Positions 5,160-51,872 of a stretch of DNA of 64,000 nt are shown in pieces. The first letter of the stretch is position 1, and the number at the start of each line of letters is the position of its first letter. Source of the DNA: Patescibacteria group bacterium (GTDB taxonomy: Bacteria; Patescibacteriota; Doudnabacteria; UBA920; O2-02-FULL-48-8). The translations under genes were made by a program, and so were the position numbers. The stretch covers positions 91,892 through 155,891 of the forward strand of contig DASUKB010000001.1 of assembly GCA_036278915.1 (NCBI GenBank). The letters are read 5' to 3'. The notes beneath the pieces are model-generated. The model ran no database searches and was not told where the DNA came from. It worked only from the letters and a program-made list of their open reading frames with translations.

Positions 5160-5720
5160 ATGAGTCCCTATAGTCCCCAATATCATAATAGTTCTTGGTT
5201 TGGTGACTGGTGGTGGGTGATAGTCCTTGTGATTGTAGGAATTGCTGCCGCAATATATTTAATTTACACGGAGCTTGGCCGACGACATTCAACACGTTTA
5301 TTTTTGCGGAACCAAAAAGTACCACAAATAATGAAAGACCTCACTCCCTTGTCCTTTGAAATTTGGGTGAGGGGATTATTTATAAATATTGGAGCAGACG
5401 CCATACTTTCCAAACGAGAATCAAAAACCGGTTTTGATCACGGGATTGATTTAGTCGCGCATTACAAAGGTCAGAAAATTTGTATTCAATGCAAGAAATA
5501 TTTCCCGAACAGATTGGTCGATGAAACAATTTTGCGAGATTTATATGGAGCAATGGAGTATGGCAAATACGACAAAGCGGTACTTGTCACCACCAGCAGT
5601 TTTACTCGCCGCGCGCGAGAGTGGGCGGAGAAGGCTGATGATATGATTTTGATAAACGGTGAACTCCTCCAAAAGATGCGAGACAATACAGGAATCCTGA
5701 TAAACCTTTTAAATAAATAA
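5160..5720 (+). CDS. Membrane-anchored Mrr_cat (restriction-endonuclease-like) domain protein
   Basis: N-terminal TM helix (WWWVIVLVIVGIAAAIYLIY). The Mrr_cat pattern follows: LSFEIW..., ...GFDHGIDLVA..., ...ICIQCKKY..., ...VLVTTSSFTRRAREWA. Located in the AT-rich island. Confidence 0.6.
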   Translation: MSPYSPQYHNSSWFGDWWWVIVLVIVGIAAAIYLIYTELGRRHSTRLFLRNQKVPQIMKDLTPLSFEIWVRGLFINIGADAILSKRESKTGFDHGIDLVAHYKGQKICIQCKKYFPNRLVDETILRDLYGAMEYGKYDKAVLVTTSSFTRRAREWAEKADDMILINGELLQKMRDNTGILINLLNK

Positions 5721-5884
5721 CGCCCCACACTCCTATGGGGCGTTAAAATTTGACAAAATGCCCATTTGGCTATAAACTTTAGGAAAGATATAATTTTTTA
5801 GAGCGGCTTTTGCCGCTTTTTTTGTCTTAATTCCATATTGCCCTTGACGTCTTTTTTTGCCTATAGTAATATTTTATTACCTAT

Positions 5885-6211
5885 ATGCAAATAAGTAAAC
5901 TAGTCAAAAATTTAAGAGACCAAAGTGAGTTCACACTCGACGTTCTAGCAAAGAAGACCGGGTTATCTGCAGGTTTTCTATCTAGATTAGAAAAGGGCAA
6001 TTACGATAACAAGAACATACAATTGGAGACAATTATACGCTTGGCGAATGGTTTGGGACAAAAGTTAAAAGATTTTTTGGACAACTTGCAGATTATAGAC
6101 CAGAATGAATTACCTCCTTTGAATCTATACCTGAGAGAAAAGTATAAGATAAAAAAAGATTCAGATATAAAAACTATCGAAGACATAATTAATAAGTTTA
6201 CTGATGAGTAA
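5885..6211 (+). CDS. XRE-family helix-turn-helix transcriptional regulator
   Basis: FTLDVLAKKTGLSAGFLSRLEKGN is a canonical Cro/C1 HTH. Overlaps the next gene by 8 nt. Confidence 0.8.
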   Translation: MQISKLVKNLRDQSEFTLDVLAKKTGLSAGFLSRLEKGNYDNKNIQLETIIRLANGLGQKLKDFLDNLQIIDQNELPPLNLYLREKYKIKKDSDIKTIEDIINKFTDE

Positions 6212-6776
6212 TTCCATAATACAAACTATAAATTCTGATGCAGAAAAAATCGCTGCAGCAATAATAGACTCGATCAATTATGGAGAAAATCCGCCACTTG
6301 GAAAGTTAATTGGTTGGTTAGAAGATAATCTACGCTCTCAGATTGATCTTAAACATATCGATTTGGGTTCTACTCCTGTTTGCGGTCTCACGTATCATGT
6401 TTTTTCAAAAGATATGTATGTGGTCCGTGTTGACAAAACCAATCCATACACAAGACAAAAATTTACGGTTGCTCACGAACTAGGACACATAATAGGAGAC
6501 TTGCAGTTAACAGCTATAGCTGGTTATTTCGACGGCGAATTGGAAAATGTAAAAAGTGGTTTGGAAAGATTTTGCAATAGATTTGCCGCAGCTTATTTAA
6601 TGCCACCAGAAATATTTAAAAGGATTTGGTCCATGTCTGGAGATAAGAATTCAACACAAATAACGAAGATGCTTTATGTTGCTTCAAGATTTGGTGTTTC
6701 CGAAGAGGCGGCCAGGTATAGAGCTATCGAACTTGGATTACTAAATTACAGTAAACGGGACAACGACCGAAATTAG
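6204..6776 (+). CDS. ImmA/IrrE-family metallopeptidase (DUF955)
   Basis: HEXXH in FTVAHELGHIIGD. Classic XRE+ImmA/IrrE pair arrangement. Confidence 0.75.
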   Translation: MSNSIIQTINSDAEKIAAAIIDSINYGENPPLGKLIGWLEDNLRSQIDLKHIDLGSTPVCGLTYHVFSKDMYVVRVDKTNPYTRQKFTVAHELGHIIGDLQLTAIAGYFDGELENVKSGLERFCNRFAAAYLMPPEIFKRIWSMSGDKNSTQITKMLYVASRFGVSEEAARYRAIELGLLNYSKRDNDRN

Positions 6777-6800
6777 CGTTGTAGAAAGGACGAAACAAAA

Positions 6801-7091
6801 ATGATCAGAATTACTTGTATCAACAAAGATAACGGTAATCATGAAAACCCACATTTGGCCATTACCTACTTAGGTTGGATAGAAGACGGTACTAATGCGG
6901 TAGGAAAATGGGCTCGATTACAGTTATATAGATGGATCAAGGAGCAAGGCGGGATTGCGTATGTTATGGATGCTATTAAGAACCGCGTATACGTAAAACC
7001 TGCCGTTTCTGTAATGGGGAATCCTTATGTTCGGACTGAATCCGATGGCAAGGTTACAAATAATTTACTCTCGTTAATTGAGTGTAAATAG
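6801..7091 (+). CDS. DUF3892 domain protein
   Basis: 96 aa. The C-terminal ...VRTESDGKVTNNLLSLIEC matches the conserved DUF3892 signature (T..D....NNLL.LP.C). Confidence 0.55.
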   Translation: MIRITCINKDNGNHENPHLAITYLGWIEDGTNAVGKWARLQLYRWIKEQGGIAYVMDAIKNRVYVKPAVSVMGNPYVRTESDGKVTNNLLSLIECK

Positions 7092-7190
7092 CAAAGACCC
7101 GAATATAATTCGGGTCCATACTCGAATTATATCACAAAAAGCGGCACTAGTGCCGCTTTTTGCTTTTTTGAATTAAAAATGTCAAAATAA

Positions 7191-8042
7191 ATGAAAGATT
7201 TAAATCAACTAGCCTTGAAATTAAAGACCAAAATTGACGCCCAGCCCTTTATAAAGTGGGCTGGCGGTAAAAGACAGCTTTTAGATGAGCTTGAGAAGCA
7301 CAAGCCTAAATGGTTCAATAGATACTTTGAACCATTTGTTGGCGGTGGAGCTTTATATTTTCGGATTCAGCCAGGGCAAAGTTTTCTGTCGGATATAAAT
7401 CCTGAATTAGTAAATCTATATTTAATAATTCAAAGTAAAGTTGATGAATTAATTTCTGAACTCAAAAAATTAAAAGTATCGGAGAAAGAATTTTATAAAA
7501 TAAGAAATATTGACAGAAAACCGGAATATAGAGAATGGAATAACATAAAAAAAGCTGCAAGATTTATATATCTAAATAAAACTTGCTTTAATGGATTGTA
7601 CAGAATGAACTCCAAAGGCCATTTTAATGTTCCTTATGGTAACCAAAACAATCCAAAAATTCTTGACGAATATAATCTCCGGCAAGTAAATAAATTATTG
7701 CAAAATTCTGATATCAAATGTCAATCCTATTCTGGAATAGAAAAAAATGTAAAGAAAGGTGACTTTGTCTACTTTGATCCTCCTTATGCTCCATTAAACA
7801 AATCTTCTTTTACGAAGTACTTTAAAGACGATTTTGATATTAAAATGCAGGTTGATCTACGAGATTTATGCGACCGTTTAGATAAAAAGGGTGTTTATTT
7901 TATGATTTCAAATTCTCATACATCCTTGATTTTTGGATTGTATAAAAACTATGATATCAAGGTAGTTGACGCAATCAGAGCTATCAACTGCAAGGGTTCT
8001 GGTAGAGGAAAAGTGAAGGAAGTCTTAATAACGAATTACTGA
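7191..8042 (+). CDS. Dam-family (D12 class) N6-adenine DNA methyltransferase
   Basis: The N-terminal SAM motif (KWAGGKRQLL, FEPFVGGGALYF) and the catalytic DPPY (VYFDPPYAP) match the alpha-group m6A MTases of the Dam/DpnM/T4Dam family. Confidence 0.85.
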   Translation: MKDLNQLALKLKTKIDAQPFIKWAGGKRQLLDELEKHKPKWFNRYFEPFVGGGALYFRIQPGQSFLSDINPELVNLYLIIQSKVDELISELKKLKVSEKEFYKIRNIDRKPEYREWNNIKKAARFIYLNKTCFNGLYRMNSKGHFNVPYGNQNNPKILDEYNLRQVNKLLQNSDIKCQSYSGIEKNVKKGDFVYFDPPYAPLNKSSFTKYFKDDFDIKMQVDLRDLCDRLDKKGVYFMISNSHTSLIFGLYKNYDIKVVDAIRAINCKGSGRGKVKEVLITNY

Positions 8043-8043
8043 A

Positions 8044-9297
8044 ATGTCCAACCGAGAACTATGGTCAAAGGTGTTTGAAATAAAAAAATTTGATCTAAAT
8101 AAAGATATTCATTTTATTACCGCAAAGGAGATAAAGCAGATCACTGGCCAAGAGCCAAGGAATATGGCTAAGATGGATAGCACTGCAGATCTGCCGTCTA
8201 TTTTCAAAAATAACGGTTATTTTTTATTACCAATTGAAAATGGGAGATATGAAATTATACGAGGTGAGGGATATCATAAATTAGAAAAAAATAAAAAGAC
8301 AGGTGAATATGATGCAGATATTAAATTTTCTATTACGACTGCTGCCAGGGGTGCAAGTGAGATGGAATATTTAGATTACTCAATTTATACAGGAGTGCTT
8401 GAGAAAATTTTGGGTCTAGGTTCCATGTACCCATCCATCCGAGGGCGTGGCCGAAGCCGAAGTTTTAATTTTTTTGTTAACCGTCATCAAGTGGATGTTT
8501 CAGGTGTCCAACTGGAAGTAGATTCAGGTTTAGAAGCGGAGCATGCCATAGTTCTTATTGAAGCCAAAATGGAGACTCCTGAGGATTTTATTGTCCGACA
8601 ACTTTATTATCCATATAGACATTTTGGCTTGATCTCGCCTTATAAAAAAATTGTCCCAACTTTTTTTACTTATGATTTAGGCAATAAAGTTTATAAATAT
8701 TGGGTTTATGATTTTAAAAACGATGTAGATTACAATTCTATATATTTAAAATCCGTCCATGCTTTTAAAATCATAAGTACCGAACCAGTGGAACTAAGCG
8801 AGCTAAAACCTTTGGAAAACACGCAGATCGCTGATATTCCACAGGCCAATGATCTTGATAAAATTATAACTATGGTTTTTGGTGTTAATGAAAAGATTGA
8901 TGATTATAAAAAAATTGCAAAATATTTTGAGTTTAATGAGCGTCAGAGTAGCTACTATAGACAGGCTGCTGAGTCTTTAGGGTTAATCTCTTCTCATAAA
9001 GGTAAGTATTATCTTACCGATAAAGGGCAGAAATTGATTAAATTGTCTACTTCTGAGAGAAATATATTTTTTATTAAGCTCATCTCGGAATACGAGCTTG
9101 TGAAAAGTAGTTTGGATATTCTTCAGCATAAGTCGGTTTTGACCGATGGAGATTTAGTTAAGCTTGTCCGCCAAAACCATAAAATAAGTGGCAGCACTGT
9201 TATCCGACGCGCTCAATCATTGAAATCTTGGTTAAATTGGATCGCTGAGAGGACAAATACGTTTATAAAAGAAGATAACAAATTTATAGTCTCATAA
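8044..9297 (+). CDS. Putative PD-(D/E)xK restriction-endonuclease-like protein with C-terminal winged-helix domain (probable partner of the Dam-family MTase)
   Basis: Start codon 1 nt after the MTase stop (translational coupling). Candidate nuclease motif ...QLEVDSG...AIVLIEAKME (D...ExK). The C-terminal ~130 aa look wHTH-like (YYRQAAESLGLISSHKGKYYLT). No family can be assigned without a search. Confidence 0.4.
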   Translation: MSNRELWSKVFEIKKFDLNKDIHFITAKEIKQITGQEPRNMAKMDSTADLPSIFKNNGYFLLPIENGRYEIIRGEGYHKLEKNKKTGEYDADIKFSITTAARGASEMEYLDYSIYTGVLEKILGLGSMYPSIRGRGRSRSFNFFVNRHQVDVSGVQLEVDSGLEAEHAIVLIEAKMETPEDFIVRQLYYPYRHFGLISPYKKIVPTFFTYDLGNKVYKYWVYDFKNDVDYNSIYLKSVHAFKIISTEPVELSELKPLENTQIADIPQANDLDKIITMVFGVNEKIDDYKKIAKYFEFNERQSSYYRQAAESLGLISSHKGKYYLTDKGQKLIKLSTSERNIFFIKLISEYELVKSSLDILQHKSVLTDGDLVKLVRQNHKISGSTVIRRAQSLKSWLNWIAERTNTFIKEDNKFIVS

Positions 9298-22647: not shown

Positions 22648-23982
22648 ATGAAACAAGAACAAAAATTCGACTTGATGGATAAAGTGATTAGTCTAGCAAA
22701 AAGGCGGGGTTTTATTTTTCCTGGAAGCGAAATTTATGGAGGGCTAGCCAACAGCTGGGACTACGGCCCGCTTGGCGTAGAGCTGAAAAATAATATCAAA
22801 AAACTTTGGTGGAAAATGTTTGTGCAGGAGCGCAGCGATATGGTAGGCATAGACGCAAGCTTGATTATGAACACAAAAGTCTGGGAAGCTTCGGGACACC
22901 TTCAAAACTTTACCGATCCGCTGGTGGAATGCAAAAAATGCCATACTCGATATCGGGAAGATCAGAAACCAGACGAATGTCCGGTTTGTGGTTTCAGCGA
23001 ATTCACACCAGCCCAGCAATTTAATTTGATGCTCAAAACATTTTTAGGACCAACGGAAGAGAAAGCCAATGAAGTCTTTTTTCGCCCGGAAACGGCTCAG
23101 GCGATTTTTGTAGACTTCAAACAGATTTTGGAAACTTCCCGCCAAAGAATTCCTTTCGGCGTGGCGCAGATTGGTAAAGCTTTCCGAAACGAAATCACTC
23201 CAGGCAACTTTATATTTCGCACGCGCGAATTTGAGCAGATGGAAATAGAATACTTCATCCAGGCTGAAGAATGGGAAAAACATTTTGAAAATTGGCTGAC
23301 GGAACTCAAAAAATGGATTAAGGCTGTGGGAATCGACGAGAAAAAAGTCCATTATGAAGAAATTGGCGAGGCTGACCGTGCATTTTATAGCAAGCGCACT
23401 ATAGACGTAGAATTTGAATACCCGTTTGGACAAAAGGAATTGTACGGCTTGGCTTATCGTACCGATTATGACCTGACTCAACATCAGAAATTTTCCGGCA
23501 AGGATTTGTCTTTCTTGGACCCAACGACAAACGAAAAATTCATACCGCACGTCATAGAGCCTTCGCTGGGCGTAGATCGTACTGTTTTGGCGGTATTGCT
23601 TTCATGTTATTCCGAATCCGAAGCGCGATCAGGCAAAGAAGATGCCGTGCACGAGACAGAAGTGACTTTGAGATTGCCGAAAAAAATTGCGCCAATCAAA
23701 ATCGCCGTGCTGCCGCTTTCCAAAAAAGACGAATTAACGGGTCCCGCGCACGAAATTGTAAATAGCTTGCACAAAACTTGGATGTGCCAGTATGATGAGA
23801 CAGCCTCAATCGGCAAGCGCTACCGAAGGCAGGACGAAATCGGCACGCCGTACTGCGTGACAGTGGATTTCGAAACCGCCAAAGATGAGTCGGTAACGGT
23901 GCGCGACCGCGACACCATGCAGCAGGATCGAATCAAAATTTCTGACTTGGAAAAATATTTTAAAGATAAATTGCAGCGCTGA
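22648..23982 (+). CDS. glyQS: Glycyl-tRNA synthetase, alpha2 (eukaryote/archaeal-like) type
   Basis: 444 aa, a single-chain class II aaRS with the FRNEITPGNFIFRTREFEQMEIEYF motif 2 region. Confidence 0.9.
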   Translation: MKQEQKFDLMDKVISLAKRRGFIFPGSEIYGGLANSWDYGPLGVELKNNIKKLWWKMFVQERSDMVGIDASLIMNTKVWEASGHLQNFTDPLVECKKCHTRYREDQKPDECPVCGFSEFTPAQQFNLMLKTFLGPTEEKANEVFFRPETAQAIFVDFKQILETSRQRIPFGVAQIGKAFRNEITPGNFIFRTREFEQMEIEYFIQAEEWEKHFENWLTELKKWIKAVGIDEKKVHYEEIGEADRAFYSKRTIDVEFEYPFGQKELYGLAYRTDYDLTQHQKFSGKDLSFLDPTTNEKFIPHVIEPSLGVDRTVLAVLLSCYSESEARSGKEDAVHETEVTLRLPKKIAPIKIAVLPLSKKDELTGPAHEIVNSLHKTWMCQYDETASIGKRYRRQDEIGTPYCVTVDFETAKDESVTVRDRDTMQQDRIKISDLEKYFKDKLQR

Positions 23983-24118
23983 ACTTGCATCCGCACCATT
24001 CGCTCGGCAAACTGTTTTTTCTGCGGCACGTCCGATTAACGGACTAAATTCTCTGCCTTTGGAATGGCCTCGAAGTTGCCTTGGAAAGAACAGTTTACCT
24101 CGCTGATACAGATTATTT

Positions 24119-33519: not shown

Positions 33520-33627
33520 GCTCGGGTCAGCATTTTTTCTCGGACACGTCCGCCTTGGCGGCGGATTAAAGTGCTCGACATTGGAAAGTCTCGCACGTTG
33601 TCCTCGAAAAATATGCCGACCCTCGCT
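33520..33627 (+). repeat. Conserved ~105-nt structured intergenic element, copy 1 (upstream of tatD)
   Basis: About 80-85% identical over ~105 nt to 43046-43148 and 51765-51872. Shared core TAAAGTGCTCGACATTGGAAGGTCTCGCACGTTGTCCTC. T6/A6 outer arms. An inner hairpin varies between copies with compensatory changes. Confidence 0.6.
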
Positions 33628-42631: not shown

Positions 42632-42643
42632 ACGGCACCGAGG

Positions 42644-42687
42644 CCTGGAACTTATGCTATCGCATAAGTTCCAGGTCTTTTATTTTT
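42644..42687 (+). terminator. Intrinsic terminator closing the GC-rich three-gene cassette
   Basis: A 14-bp perfect stem CCTGGAACTTATGC / GCATAAGTTCCAGG, then a T-run. Confidence 0.7.
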
Positions 42688-42965
42688 GGCAAACAAAAAG
42701 ACCATGCACAAATTACGTTGCATGGCCTTTGGGCAATTGCTTGGGAGTGATACGTACTTCCGTGATTTTTTTGCCGTCGGGTGTGCGGAAATCAAGGAAT
42801 ACTCCCGGATTGTTGCGGTAAGCTTCCCTTACGAATTCAATATCCATTTCTTGCCTGTGCCACCGATGCCAGAAAACAATTCTCGTCTCCACAGAATCCT
42901 CCTTGCAGGTTAAATATAGTCATTTCACAAAAATTGTAAAGGCTAGTACAATACTTTCGGATCGG

Positions 42966-43039
42966 CGGGGTGTAGTATACCGGTAGTACGCGCCCATGGG
43001 GTGGGTGTAGACCGGGTTCAATTCCCGGCATCCCGACCA
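42966..43039 (+). tRNA. tRNA-Pro (anticodon GGG), CCA encoded
   Basis: Acceptor CGGGGTG/CATCCCG (C1:G72, typical of bacterial tRNA-Pro). U8 A9. D-arm GTAT/GTAC. Anticodon stem CGCCC/GGGTG with loop ATGGGGT. T-arm CCGGG-TTCAATT-CCCGG. Discriminator A plus CCA. Confidence 0.75.
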
Positions 43040-43045
43040 AAATAC

Positions 43046-43148
43046 GCTCGGACATCAGTTTTTTTCGGACACGGCCGCTTCGGGCGGCCTAAAGTGCTCG
43101 ACATTGGAAGGTCTCGCACGTTGTCCTCAAAAAACTGCTGTCCTCGCT
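43046..43148 (+). repeat. Conserved ~105-nt structured intergenic element, copy 2 (downstream of tRNA-Pro)
   Basis: Aligns with the 33520-33627 and 51765-51872 copies. The inner hairpin GGCCGC-ttcgg-GCGGCC has a UUCG-like loop. A classical terminator (43154-43180) follows directly. Confidence 0.6.
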
Positions 43149-43153
43149 TCTAG

Positions 43154-43180
43154 AAAAAAACCACTTCGGTGGGTTTTTTT
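43154..43180 (+). terminator. Intrinsic terminator with UUCG tetraloop (potentially bidirectional)
   Basis: AAAAAAACCAC-TTCG-GTGGGTTTTTTT. Confidence 0.7.
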
Positions 43181-51764: not shown

Positions 51765-51872
51765 ATCGCTCGGTCAGAAATTTTTTGTCGGACACGCCCG
51801 CTTAGGGCCGGCTAAAGTGCTCAACATTGGAAGGTTTCGCACGTTGTCCTCCAAAAAATTTCTGCCCTCGCT
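51765..51872 (+). repeat. Conserved ~105-nt structured intergenic element, copy 3 (rpsG-fusA spacer)
   Basis: Aligns with the other two copies. It carries the GAC:GTC to AAC:GTT compensatory change in the central helix and fills the usually short rpsG-fusA spacer. Confidence 0.6.

Follow-up and report, generated by a model that had tools for sequence, protein, structure and literature searches.

Four copies of a short, strongly folded element lie in the 64-kb window, by which we mean the whole stretch of DNA analysed here (Table 1). Every copy is intergenic and inside a transcription unit. Copy 1 separates metG from tatD, beginning 29 nt after the metG stop (33490) and ending 13 nt before the tatD ATG (33641), and copy 2 follows tRNA-Pro(ggg). 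Copy 3 occupies the spacer between rpsG and fusA, 3 nt beyond the rpsG stop (51764) and 21 nt ahead of the fusA ATG (51894). Copy 4 lies between a class II aminoacyl-tRNA synthetase gene (22648-23982), the stop of which is 19 nt away, and the ATG of an M16 peptidase gene (24119), 14 nt away, both genes being assigned by Pfam. The initial annotation of this DNA had described the first three sites as copies of one element of ~105 nt, and its positions and contexts (upstream of tatD, just after tRNA-Pro, rpsG/fusA) agree with the gene and tRNA coordinates; the site of copy 3 stands, with its start moved from 51765 to 51768. The count of three, by contrast, falls short of the window total, to which a covariance model trained on copies 1-3 (R1; the later model is R2) adds the copy at 24002-24104. 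R1 scores the four copies at 69-119 bits. A 39-nt core has three occurrences in the window at two mismatches or fewer, compared with none in 100 shuffles.

Table 1. Coordinates of the element copies, the parts of copy 1 and the features of the tRNA-Pro unit in the window.
Feature	Position	Strand	Sequence or context	Score or basis
Element copy 1	33520..33627	+		CM 116 bits; fold -46.1 kcal/mol, z -4.9
Copy 1, basal stem 5' arm	33520..33546	+	GC[UC]GGGUC[A]GCAUUUUUUC[UC]GGACA	folding
Copy 1, hairpin P2	33548..33566	+	variable, GC-rich	folding, RNAalifold, pair counts
Copy 1, hairpin P3	33571..33596	+	GUGC[UC]GAC, loop AUUGGAAA, GUC[UC]GCAC	folding, RNAalifold, pair counts
Copy 1, basal stem 3' arm	33599..33626	+	UGUCC[UC]GAAAAA[U]AUGC[C]GACCC[UC]GC	folding, pair counts
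Element copy 2	43046..43148	+	6 nt 3' of tRNA-Pro(ggg)	
Element copy 3	51768..51872	+		CM 119 bits
Element copy 4	24002..24104	+		CM R1 69 bits, E 4e-15; CM R2 100 bits; fold z -4.4
Promoter-like site before tRNA-Pro	42924..42952	+	TTCACA-17-TACAAT	consensus scan
tRNA-Pro(ggg) gene	42966..43039	+		ARAGORN
Terminator-like hairpin	43154..43180	+	between A7 and U7, AAAAAAACCACUUCGGUGGGUUUUUUU	read from sequence

The copies are 101-108 nt long and have a common Y-shaped fold, obtained both by single-sequence folding and with RNAalifold. The basal stem of ~22 bp is made up, in order, of GC[UC]GG, a variable part of 7-8 bp, U6:A6, [UC/UC] and GGACA:UGUCC, and is interrupted by conserved 2x2 UC/UC internal loops. 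The sequence of the 7-8-bp segment varies freely, with complementarity always kept and a 1x1 mismatch at its centre. Atop the stem is a three-way junction that carries hairpin P2, the spacer UAAA and then hairpin P3, which has a UC/UC internal loop of its own and an 8-nt loop, AUUGGAAG (consensus WUUGGRAK). Loop and junction nucleotides are conserved in 9/9 canonical copies. The helices proposed at the outset, namely an outer helix (U6/GGACA against UGUCC/A6), a core helix (GUGC..GAC[8-nt loop]GUC..GCAC) and a variable GC hairpin, were all recovered by the two approaches, and the double change from GAC:GUC to AAC:GUU reported for copy 3 is real (RNAalifold columns 59/72).

The best-conserved part of the element is its termini, 5'-GCUCG...CUCGCU-3', which are nearly invariant. 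The arms are long imperfect inverted repeats of which the terminal 6 nt are mismatched (GCTCGG vs CCGAGC, read as GC[TC]GG/CC[TC]GC), and these mismatches are conserved in all copies. The motif CUCG occurs up to six times per copy on the + strand, with the UC dinucleotides opposed; on the minus strand the UC loops become tandem GA mismatches, and that strand is therefore predicted to be the more stable. The + strands of copies 1-3 fold with z from -3.4 to -5.6 relative to shuffled sequence. Most other copies agree with the canonical P2/P3 arrangement, from which the + strand MFE and centroid structures of the copy in locus L083 (see below) deviate. A coding element was considered and rejected: the copies have no reading frame in common, their lengths differ by non-multiples of three, and those of L083 and L093b contain stops in 3/3 forward frames.

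The search for further copies was productive. Besides copy 4, it yielded five copies and one diverged copy outside the window, in three related Candidatus Doudnabacteria assemblies, and the element is known from loci of four assemblies in all. The copies of L082 and L083 (metagenome Ga0209542) were found with a looser core pattern, and those of L089 (one) and L093 (two), contigs of GCA_034680565.1, via protein-guided syntenic loci; these five have covariance model scores of 80-108 bits. The diverged copy, in L088 (GCA_019659055.1), sits after tRNA-Pro and resembles the others in its GCUCG...CUCGCU termini, its length and its Y-shaped fold (z -5.7 to -6.4). Its inner sequence is not kept, and the loop and junction nucleotides are not retained. 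Pairwise identity among copies is 57-90%. There are no near-identical full-length copies among those compared, and recent mobility is therefore not demonstrated. The nearest rpsG loci are those of Candidatus Doudnabacteria, at 77% identity, and the rpsG-fusA spacer of the Logan contig L001 is identical to that of the window, copy 3 included.

Elsewhere, the searches were negative. A tight degenerate core pattern had no matches in genome and metagenome contig collections, the phage, plasmid and viral collections held no match to the element, and R1 and R2, run over 550-709 kb of rpsG and parB loci from other CPR bacteria, returned no further copies. The loose terminal pattern GCTCG-N80-108-CTCGCT was rejected as a family marker, as it gives chance matches without hairpins in other loci. 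The earlier remark that no known Rfam family is recognisable here was checked on all copies and holds: none matched any of the 4227 families of Rfam 15, whether judged by the gathering threshold or by E<=10. The passing matches were tRNAs only, and sub-threshold overlaps (at most 14-28 bits, where 42-60 would be needed) lay mostly over the adjacent tRNA. The literature on Doudnabacteria or Patescibacteria repeats and non-coding RNAs yielded nothing relevant. Across the loci searched, the family is limited to one subgroup of Candidatus Doudnabacteria (CPR/Patescibacteria).

Covariation across the nine canonical copies is extensive. Standard pairs are found in 94.7% of pair cells, compared with 40-50% when the partners are slid by 1-3 columns, and double-sided changes in 18/36 pairs, values reached by 0/500 shuffles; fitting of the alignment to the model biases these counts towards structure, yet the margin is wide. 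The basal stem is 97% paired, with double changes in 10/22 pairs, P2 is 87% paired, with double changes in 3 pairs, and P3 is 94% paired, with double changes in 5/7 pairs. Given the margin over the controls, pairing has been kept up in every copy, and the many pair-preserving changes and the shared fold predicted from the window alone are thus upheld.

The further step taken in the initial annotation, that such substitutions indicate selection on RNA, is not supported. REPINs, in which compensatory changes are common, are DNA-level hairpin elements (PMC3116915) and give the same pattern. The count of G·U against A·C combinations, which is 6 to 5 overall (5:3 in the sense copies and 1:2 in the two antisense copies), carries no strand signal. 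Matching arms can also arise neutrally, through template-switch correction in quasipalindromic DNA. The minus strand folds equally well or better, and the copy shared by L083 and L093 is apparently antisense to predicted transcription. For each of these reasons RNA is not established as the selected molecule.

The setting of the copies is less uniform than their fold, with one recurring feature, the end of a tRNA gene. At the first of three independent tRNA sites, the element lies 5-6 nt from the 3' end of tRNA-Pro(ggg) (window, L082, L089 and L088); at the second, it lies 7 nt from the 3' end of tRNA-Gly(ccc) (L093); at the third, it is inverted and lies 7 nt upstream of the 5' end of tRNA-Met (L083 and L093). 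The GCUCGG end faces the tRNA gene at 3/3 of these sites. Copies orthologous to copy 2 follow tRNA-Pro in L082 and L089 and, in diverged form, in L088, and both the tRNA-Pro- and the tRNA-Met-linked copies are found at orthologous sites across species, with neighbouring proteins 64-75% identical. All six independent sites adjoin genes of the translation apparatus, an adjacency that is suggestive given that ~37% of window genes belong to that class, although the comparison is post hoc. The tRNA-Met-linked copy of L083 and L093 sits between the tRNA-Met operon and a promoter-like site (TTGATT-17-TATAAT, or TTGCTT-17-TATACT with TG); if that site is a promoter, it appears to be the reverse complement of the element that is transcribed. 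Both orientations therefore occur relative to flanking genes or predicted transcription.

Two further features of these tRNA-Met loci may be recorded. The block of element, two tRNA-Met genes and tRNA-Asp is inverted relative to the CCA-adding-enzyme gene between L083 (1795-2513) and L093 (11780-12170), with the mutual arrangement of element and tRNAs preserved. In L083, ~365 nt (1965-2329) separate two minus-strand tRNA-Met genes that are 35 nt apart in the L093 orthologue; this interval contains tRNA-like pieces uncalled by ARAGORN and may represent a disrupted or intron-bearing tRNA.

The tRNA-Pro site has the organization of a small transcription unit. Promoter-like sequences precede tRNA-Pro in L082, L089 and L088 as well as in the window, and a terminator-like hairpin follows the element. 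That of the window is too short for the terminator-scan criteria, and those of L082 and L088 are stronger. The window, L082 and L088 have the same order of promoter-like site, tRNA-Pro, element and terminator, and tRNA-Pro(ggg) is predicted to be co-transcribed with copy 2. This conserved order invites a reading in which the element is a structured RNA with a host function. The tRNA-Pro-linked copy would then be an sRNA gene with the promoter of the tRNA and its own terminator, freed by tRNA 3' processing and acting in trans, for example through a protein bound via the AUUGGAAG loop and the UAAA junction, and the remaining copies would be paralogues expressed from operon transcripts. Strong covariation, the retention of loop and junction nucleotides throughout the canonical copies and the presence of translation genes beside every site all fit such a role. 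However, the diverged L088 copy retains only the termini and overall shape, the L083 and L093 copies are apparently antisense to the only promoter-like sites found there, the operon-internal copies have neither promoter nor terminator of their own, four relatives (L084, L086, L092 and L004) do not have the element after tRNA-Pro, and the G·U pairs show no strand asymmetry. We therefore consider an sRNA function to be distinctly unlikely. A hairpin of 18 perfectly matched base pairs with a U-rich run after it (42640-42679, + strand), about 290 nt before tRNA-Pro, resembles a strong terminator; its matches to the element model are weak and spurious.

Regulation in cis, by a riboswitch, protein-binding leader or attenuator of the downstream gene, is suggested by the five copies that end 13-21 nt before the next start codon and by the conserved sequence of the three-way junction. 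The short distance to the start codon follows from insertion into very short spacers, and the downstream genes are unrelated (tatD, fusA, and genes for an M16 peptidase, a cytidylyltransferase-like protein and an HD-domain protein). A terminator rather than a gene directly follows three tRNA-Pro-linked copies, which in itself makes a leader unlikely, one orthologous pair (L083 and L093) is apparently antisense, and no alternative terminator/anti-terminator or start-site-masking fold was found. The element thus differs from known riboswitches and leaders in not being consistently sense, in not lying 5' of functionally related genes and in having no expression platform, and we regard this explanation as highly improbable. 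The idea that the element replaces a Shine-Dalgarno sequence was also rejected, since genes in the window generally do without one. The sequences upstream of ~40 start codons in the window are mostly A/U-rich and have no Shine-Dalgarno motif, and translation initiation therefore appears largely independent of one. We read the element as neither a riboswitch nor a dedicated sRNA.

Comparison with orthologous junctions is informative as to how the element came to its present positions. In four relatives metG and tatD abut or overlap, with no spacer, and the rpsG-fusA spacer of close relatives measures 54 nt (L002) and 11 nt (L003). The window copies are therefore insertions, or else their absence elsewhere reflects clean deletion. 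In a rough ParB tree, carriers of the tRNA-Pro-linked copy are interleaved with non-carriers. The metG-tatD spacer of L088 was examined as a possible decayed copy and rejected, the similarity not being significant; this spacer of 77 nt (920-996) is CTCG-rich and contains CTCGCTAATCGCTCG, which is like the 3' terminus of the element joined to the 5' terminus. In six other CPR loci (L005, L007, L009, L010, L017 and L022) the distance from rpsG to the next large ORF, taken as fusA, is 0.5-1.0 kb, and something other than the element occupies the gap.

Variation among the copies has a pattern of its own. In P3, the variant GUGC UC GAC is common to window copies 1-3, GUC UC GGRC to L082 and L083, and UUC NC NGCC to L089, the L093 copy at 2182 and window copy 4; copies from one assembly have core variants in common. 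The copy after tRNA-Pro in L089 (9795-9899) and that after tRNA-Gly in L093 (2182-2282) have an identical 62-nt core and different outer stems, each of which is still fully complementary, and this combination suggests either conversion of the core or unusually fast change of the outer stem. The orthologous tRNA-Pro copies of L082 and L089 are 72% identical, compared with 89% for their ParB proteins. Judged by these comparisons, the copies of a genome seem to turn over, to convert one another or to be re-inserted, a pattern unlike the slow vertical evolution of a single gene.

A possible trace of such an event lies immediately before copy 4, where GCATCCGCACCA (23987-24001) is identical at 10/12 positions to the tRNA-Pro 3' end, GCATCCCGACCA (43028-43039), and is offset from copy 4 by about the same distance as the tRNA-Pro end is from copy 2. 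It could be a remnant, with copy 4 derived from a tRNA-Pro-linked copy. The broader proposition that copies generally carry an upstream piece of tRNA was rejected, as it applies to copy 4 only, with a post hoc shuffle p of ~0.07. Two other candidates for a feature in the flanks were likewise discarded: a constant hairpin in front of the element (over 80 nt, the sequences upstream of the three non-tRNA copies are unstructured), and a structured RNA in the conserved leader upstream of the antisense copy (not significantly structured).

In our view, the element on balance probably represents a new, non-coding family of palindromic interspersed repeats, 101-108 bp in size, that are co-transcribed with their neighbours and form a generic RNA hairpin. 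Its dispersal and its pattern of presence and absence, with four copies in 64 kb and empty orthologous junctions in relatives, are those of a repeat, and of the three possibilities raised in the initial annotation it is the MITE-like palindromic repeat that fits best, a cis-regulatory RNA and a small RNA fitting less well. Copies may have spread by hairpin-dependent copy-and-insert in the manner of REPINs or MITEs or, alternatively, through successive rounds of duplication and conversion that started from a tRNA-linked copy already in the genome. Each would form a Y-shaped hairpin as single-stranded DNA or as RNA, from either strand. Since every copy lies inside a transcription unit, the copies are presumably transcribed, and they would then place a long RNA hairpin in tRNA precursors and in polycistronic mRNAs of translation genes. 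A ~22-bp basal stem with internal loops is predicted in every copy, and an RNase III substrate needs ~20 bp or more; the hairpin would most likely have a generic role, either as a site of RNase III-type processing or as a barrier to exonucleases that keeps the flanking RNAs apart or stabilises them, such effects having been reported for Correia, ERIC and REP elements. It may plausibly influence how transcripts are processed or how stable they are.

The usual marks of a mobile element are scarce around these copies. There is no target-site duplication in the flanks of eight copies and no conserved target motif, the flanks sharing nothing other than a C that precedes 9/10 copies, and no transposase, reverse transcriptase or integrase was found among the 46 ORFs scanned in the 64-kb window. 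Other considerations count against an interspersed repeat as the whole explanation. The sequence-conserved three-way junction and loop are more elaborate than a transposase substrate needs, retention at orthologous sites in a small, deletion-prone genome suggests a host function, and the location of all sites beside translation genes is suggestive in the same direction.

A stricter version of the repeat explanation would place everything at the level of DNA. The element would be a non-autonomous transposon and would move as a hairpin of single-stranded DNA, with the help of an HUH/Y1-type (RAYT- or IS200-like) enzyme encoded in trans that cuts at the GCTCG/CTCGCT termini, and the RNA fold would be incidental and without a role. 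The termini are indeed the sole sequence shared with the diverged L088 copy, both orientations are seen, and hairpins with compensatory changes are typical of REPINs. Furthermore, the greater stability of the minus strand, in which tandem GA replaces the UC loops, is in keeping with this version, and the GCUCGG end is turned towards the tRNA irrespective of the direction of the tRNA gene, as would fit the targeting of DNA and not of RNA. The element has, however, no conserved GTAG and no REP doublets, there is no Y1 transposase in the DNA examined, there are no identical copies, and a co-directional block of genes has two copies of opposite orientation within 10 kb, at odds with the replication-linked bias of IS200/IS605. 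We think it unlikely that DNA-level transposition is the full account.

The closest parallels to a co-transcribed palindromic repeat are to be found among the small extragenic elements of other bacteria. REPINs persist vertically for long periods and are predicted to fold in single-stranded DNA or mRNA (PMC3116915). Like the present element, they are non-coding extragenic hairpins of ~100 nt in dispersed copies, with conserved ends and a middle that is less constrained yet complementary (PMC3116915), and here, too, compensatory changes keep the hairpin. Unlike REPINs, the element does not conserve GTAG/CTAC-bearing REP units, where they have a spacer it has a three-way junction bearing two dissimilar hairpins, and it is associated with the ends of tRNA genes, which is a trait of the element and not of REPINs. 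REP-RAYT systems include a single-copy RAYT (Y1 transposase) gene in the same genome, usually flanked by REPINs; the ORFs scanned in the 64-kb window, a small part of the genome, contain no RAYT gene. Known REPINs are from proteobacteria and cyanobacteria, whereas the element is from CPR bacteria.

The Correia/NEMIS elements of Neisseria and ERIC/IRU of enterobacteria are co-transcribed with flanking genes, and their RNA stem-loops have been linked to RNase III cleavage (Correia) and to changes in mRNA stability (ERIC) (PMC2229807). These repeats of 100-155 bp are likewise palindromic and occupy intergenic positions within operons. Their terminal inverted repeats are true ones and TA is duplicated at the target site, whereas the element described here has neither a TA duplication nor matched termini (GCUCG vs CGAGC, with UC/UC loops) and no sequence similarity to them. 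The Rickettsia palindromic elements (RPE, 105-146 bp) offer a parallel in having spread in a small, reduced genome, in or beside RNA genes (PMC2229807), but they lie in-frame in protein-coding genes and carry ORFs, whereas the element is strictly intergenic and non-coding.

IS200/IS605-derived elements differ from it in that it has no fixed replication orientation and its left flanks have only the final C in common. It is also unlike an integron attC site: its termini are GCTCGG/CCTCGCT, it has no R''/R' cores (RYYYAAC ... GTTRRRY), and its neighbours are housekeeping genes. Repeated, structurally conserved hairpins between cistrons are also exemplified by the intercistronic RNase III sites of T7 and the 3' stabilisers formed by REP sequences in E. 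coli. As a functional analogy, a helix of some two turns is broken by internal loops in the T7 sites, as it is here; the T7 sites are ~60 nt long and unbranched, the element ~105 nt and branched. The element departs from each named family considered in the characters that define that family, and constitutes a separate one, with an unusual branched interior, mismatched termini and an association with tRNA ends, although it resembles the small palindromic repeats of other bacteria in its workings and probably in its evolution.

The genomes of CPR/Patescibacteria are ~1 Mb in size, tightly packed and poor in repeats, and to our knowledge almost nothing is known of their non-coding RNAs and mobile DNA. 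Both the density of the element in so streamlined a genome and its adjacency to tRNA genes are mildly surprising, and it is unusual for a bacterial miniature repeat to favour the ends of tRNA genes and to turn the same terminus towards them each time. Four copies in 64 kb, in essential translation operons and at tRNA ends, would represent either a parasite that has persisted in the genome or a signal for RNA processing used in common by these transcripts. The latter possibility can be taken further, to a host-functional, tRNA-linked "punctuation" RNA of CPR bacteria, in which a nuclease or binding protein would recognise the GCUCG/CUCGCU base and the UC/UC loops. We judge this to be unlikely. 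Were it true, the hairpin would direct how tRNA precursors are processed, and likewise the polycistronic mRNAs that encode aminoacyl-tRNA synthetases, ribosomal proteins and elongation factors, so that minimal genomes would have one common means of controlling their translation apparatus after transcription. Whichever reading proves correct, the motif, supported as it is by covariation, can be used in RNA and repeat libraries and in the annotation of Doudnabacteria MAGs, and can be tested for in metatranscriptomes.

One other feature of the window deserves mention. At 5160-9297 lies a restriction/defence-like cluster that includes a Mrr-type endonuclease, an M78 (IrrE-like) peptidase, a D12 N6-adenine DNA methyltransferase and a DUF6996/DUF6997/DUF7226 protein.
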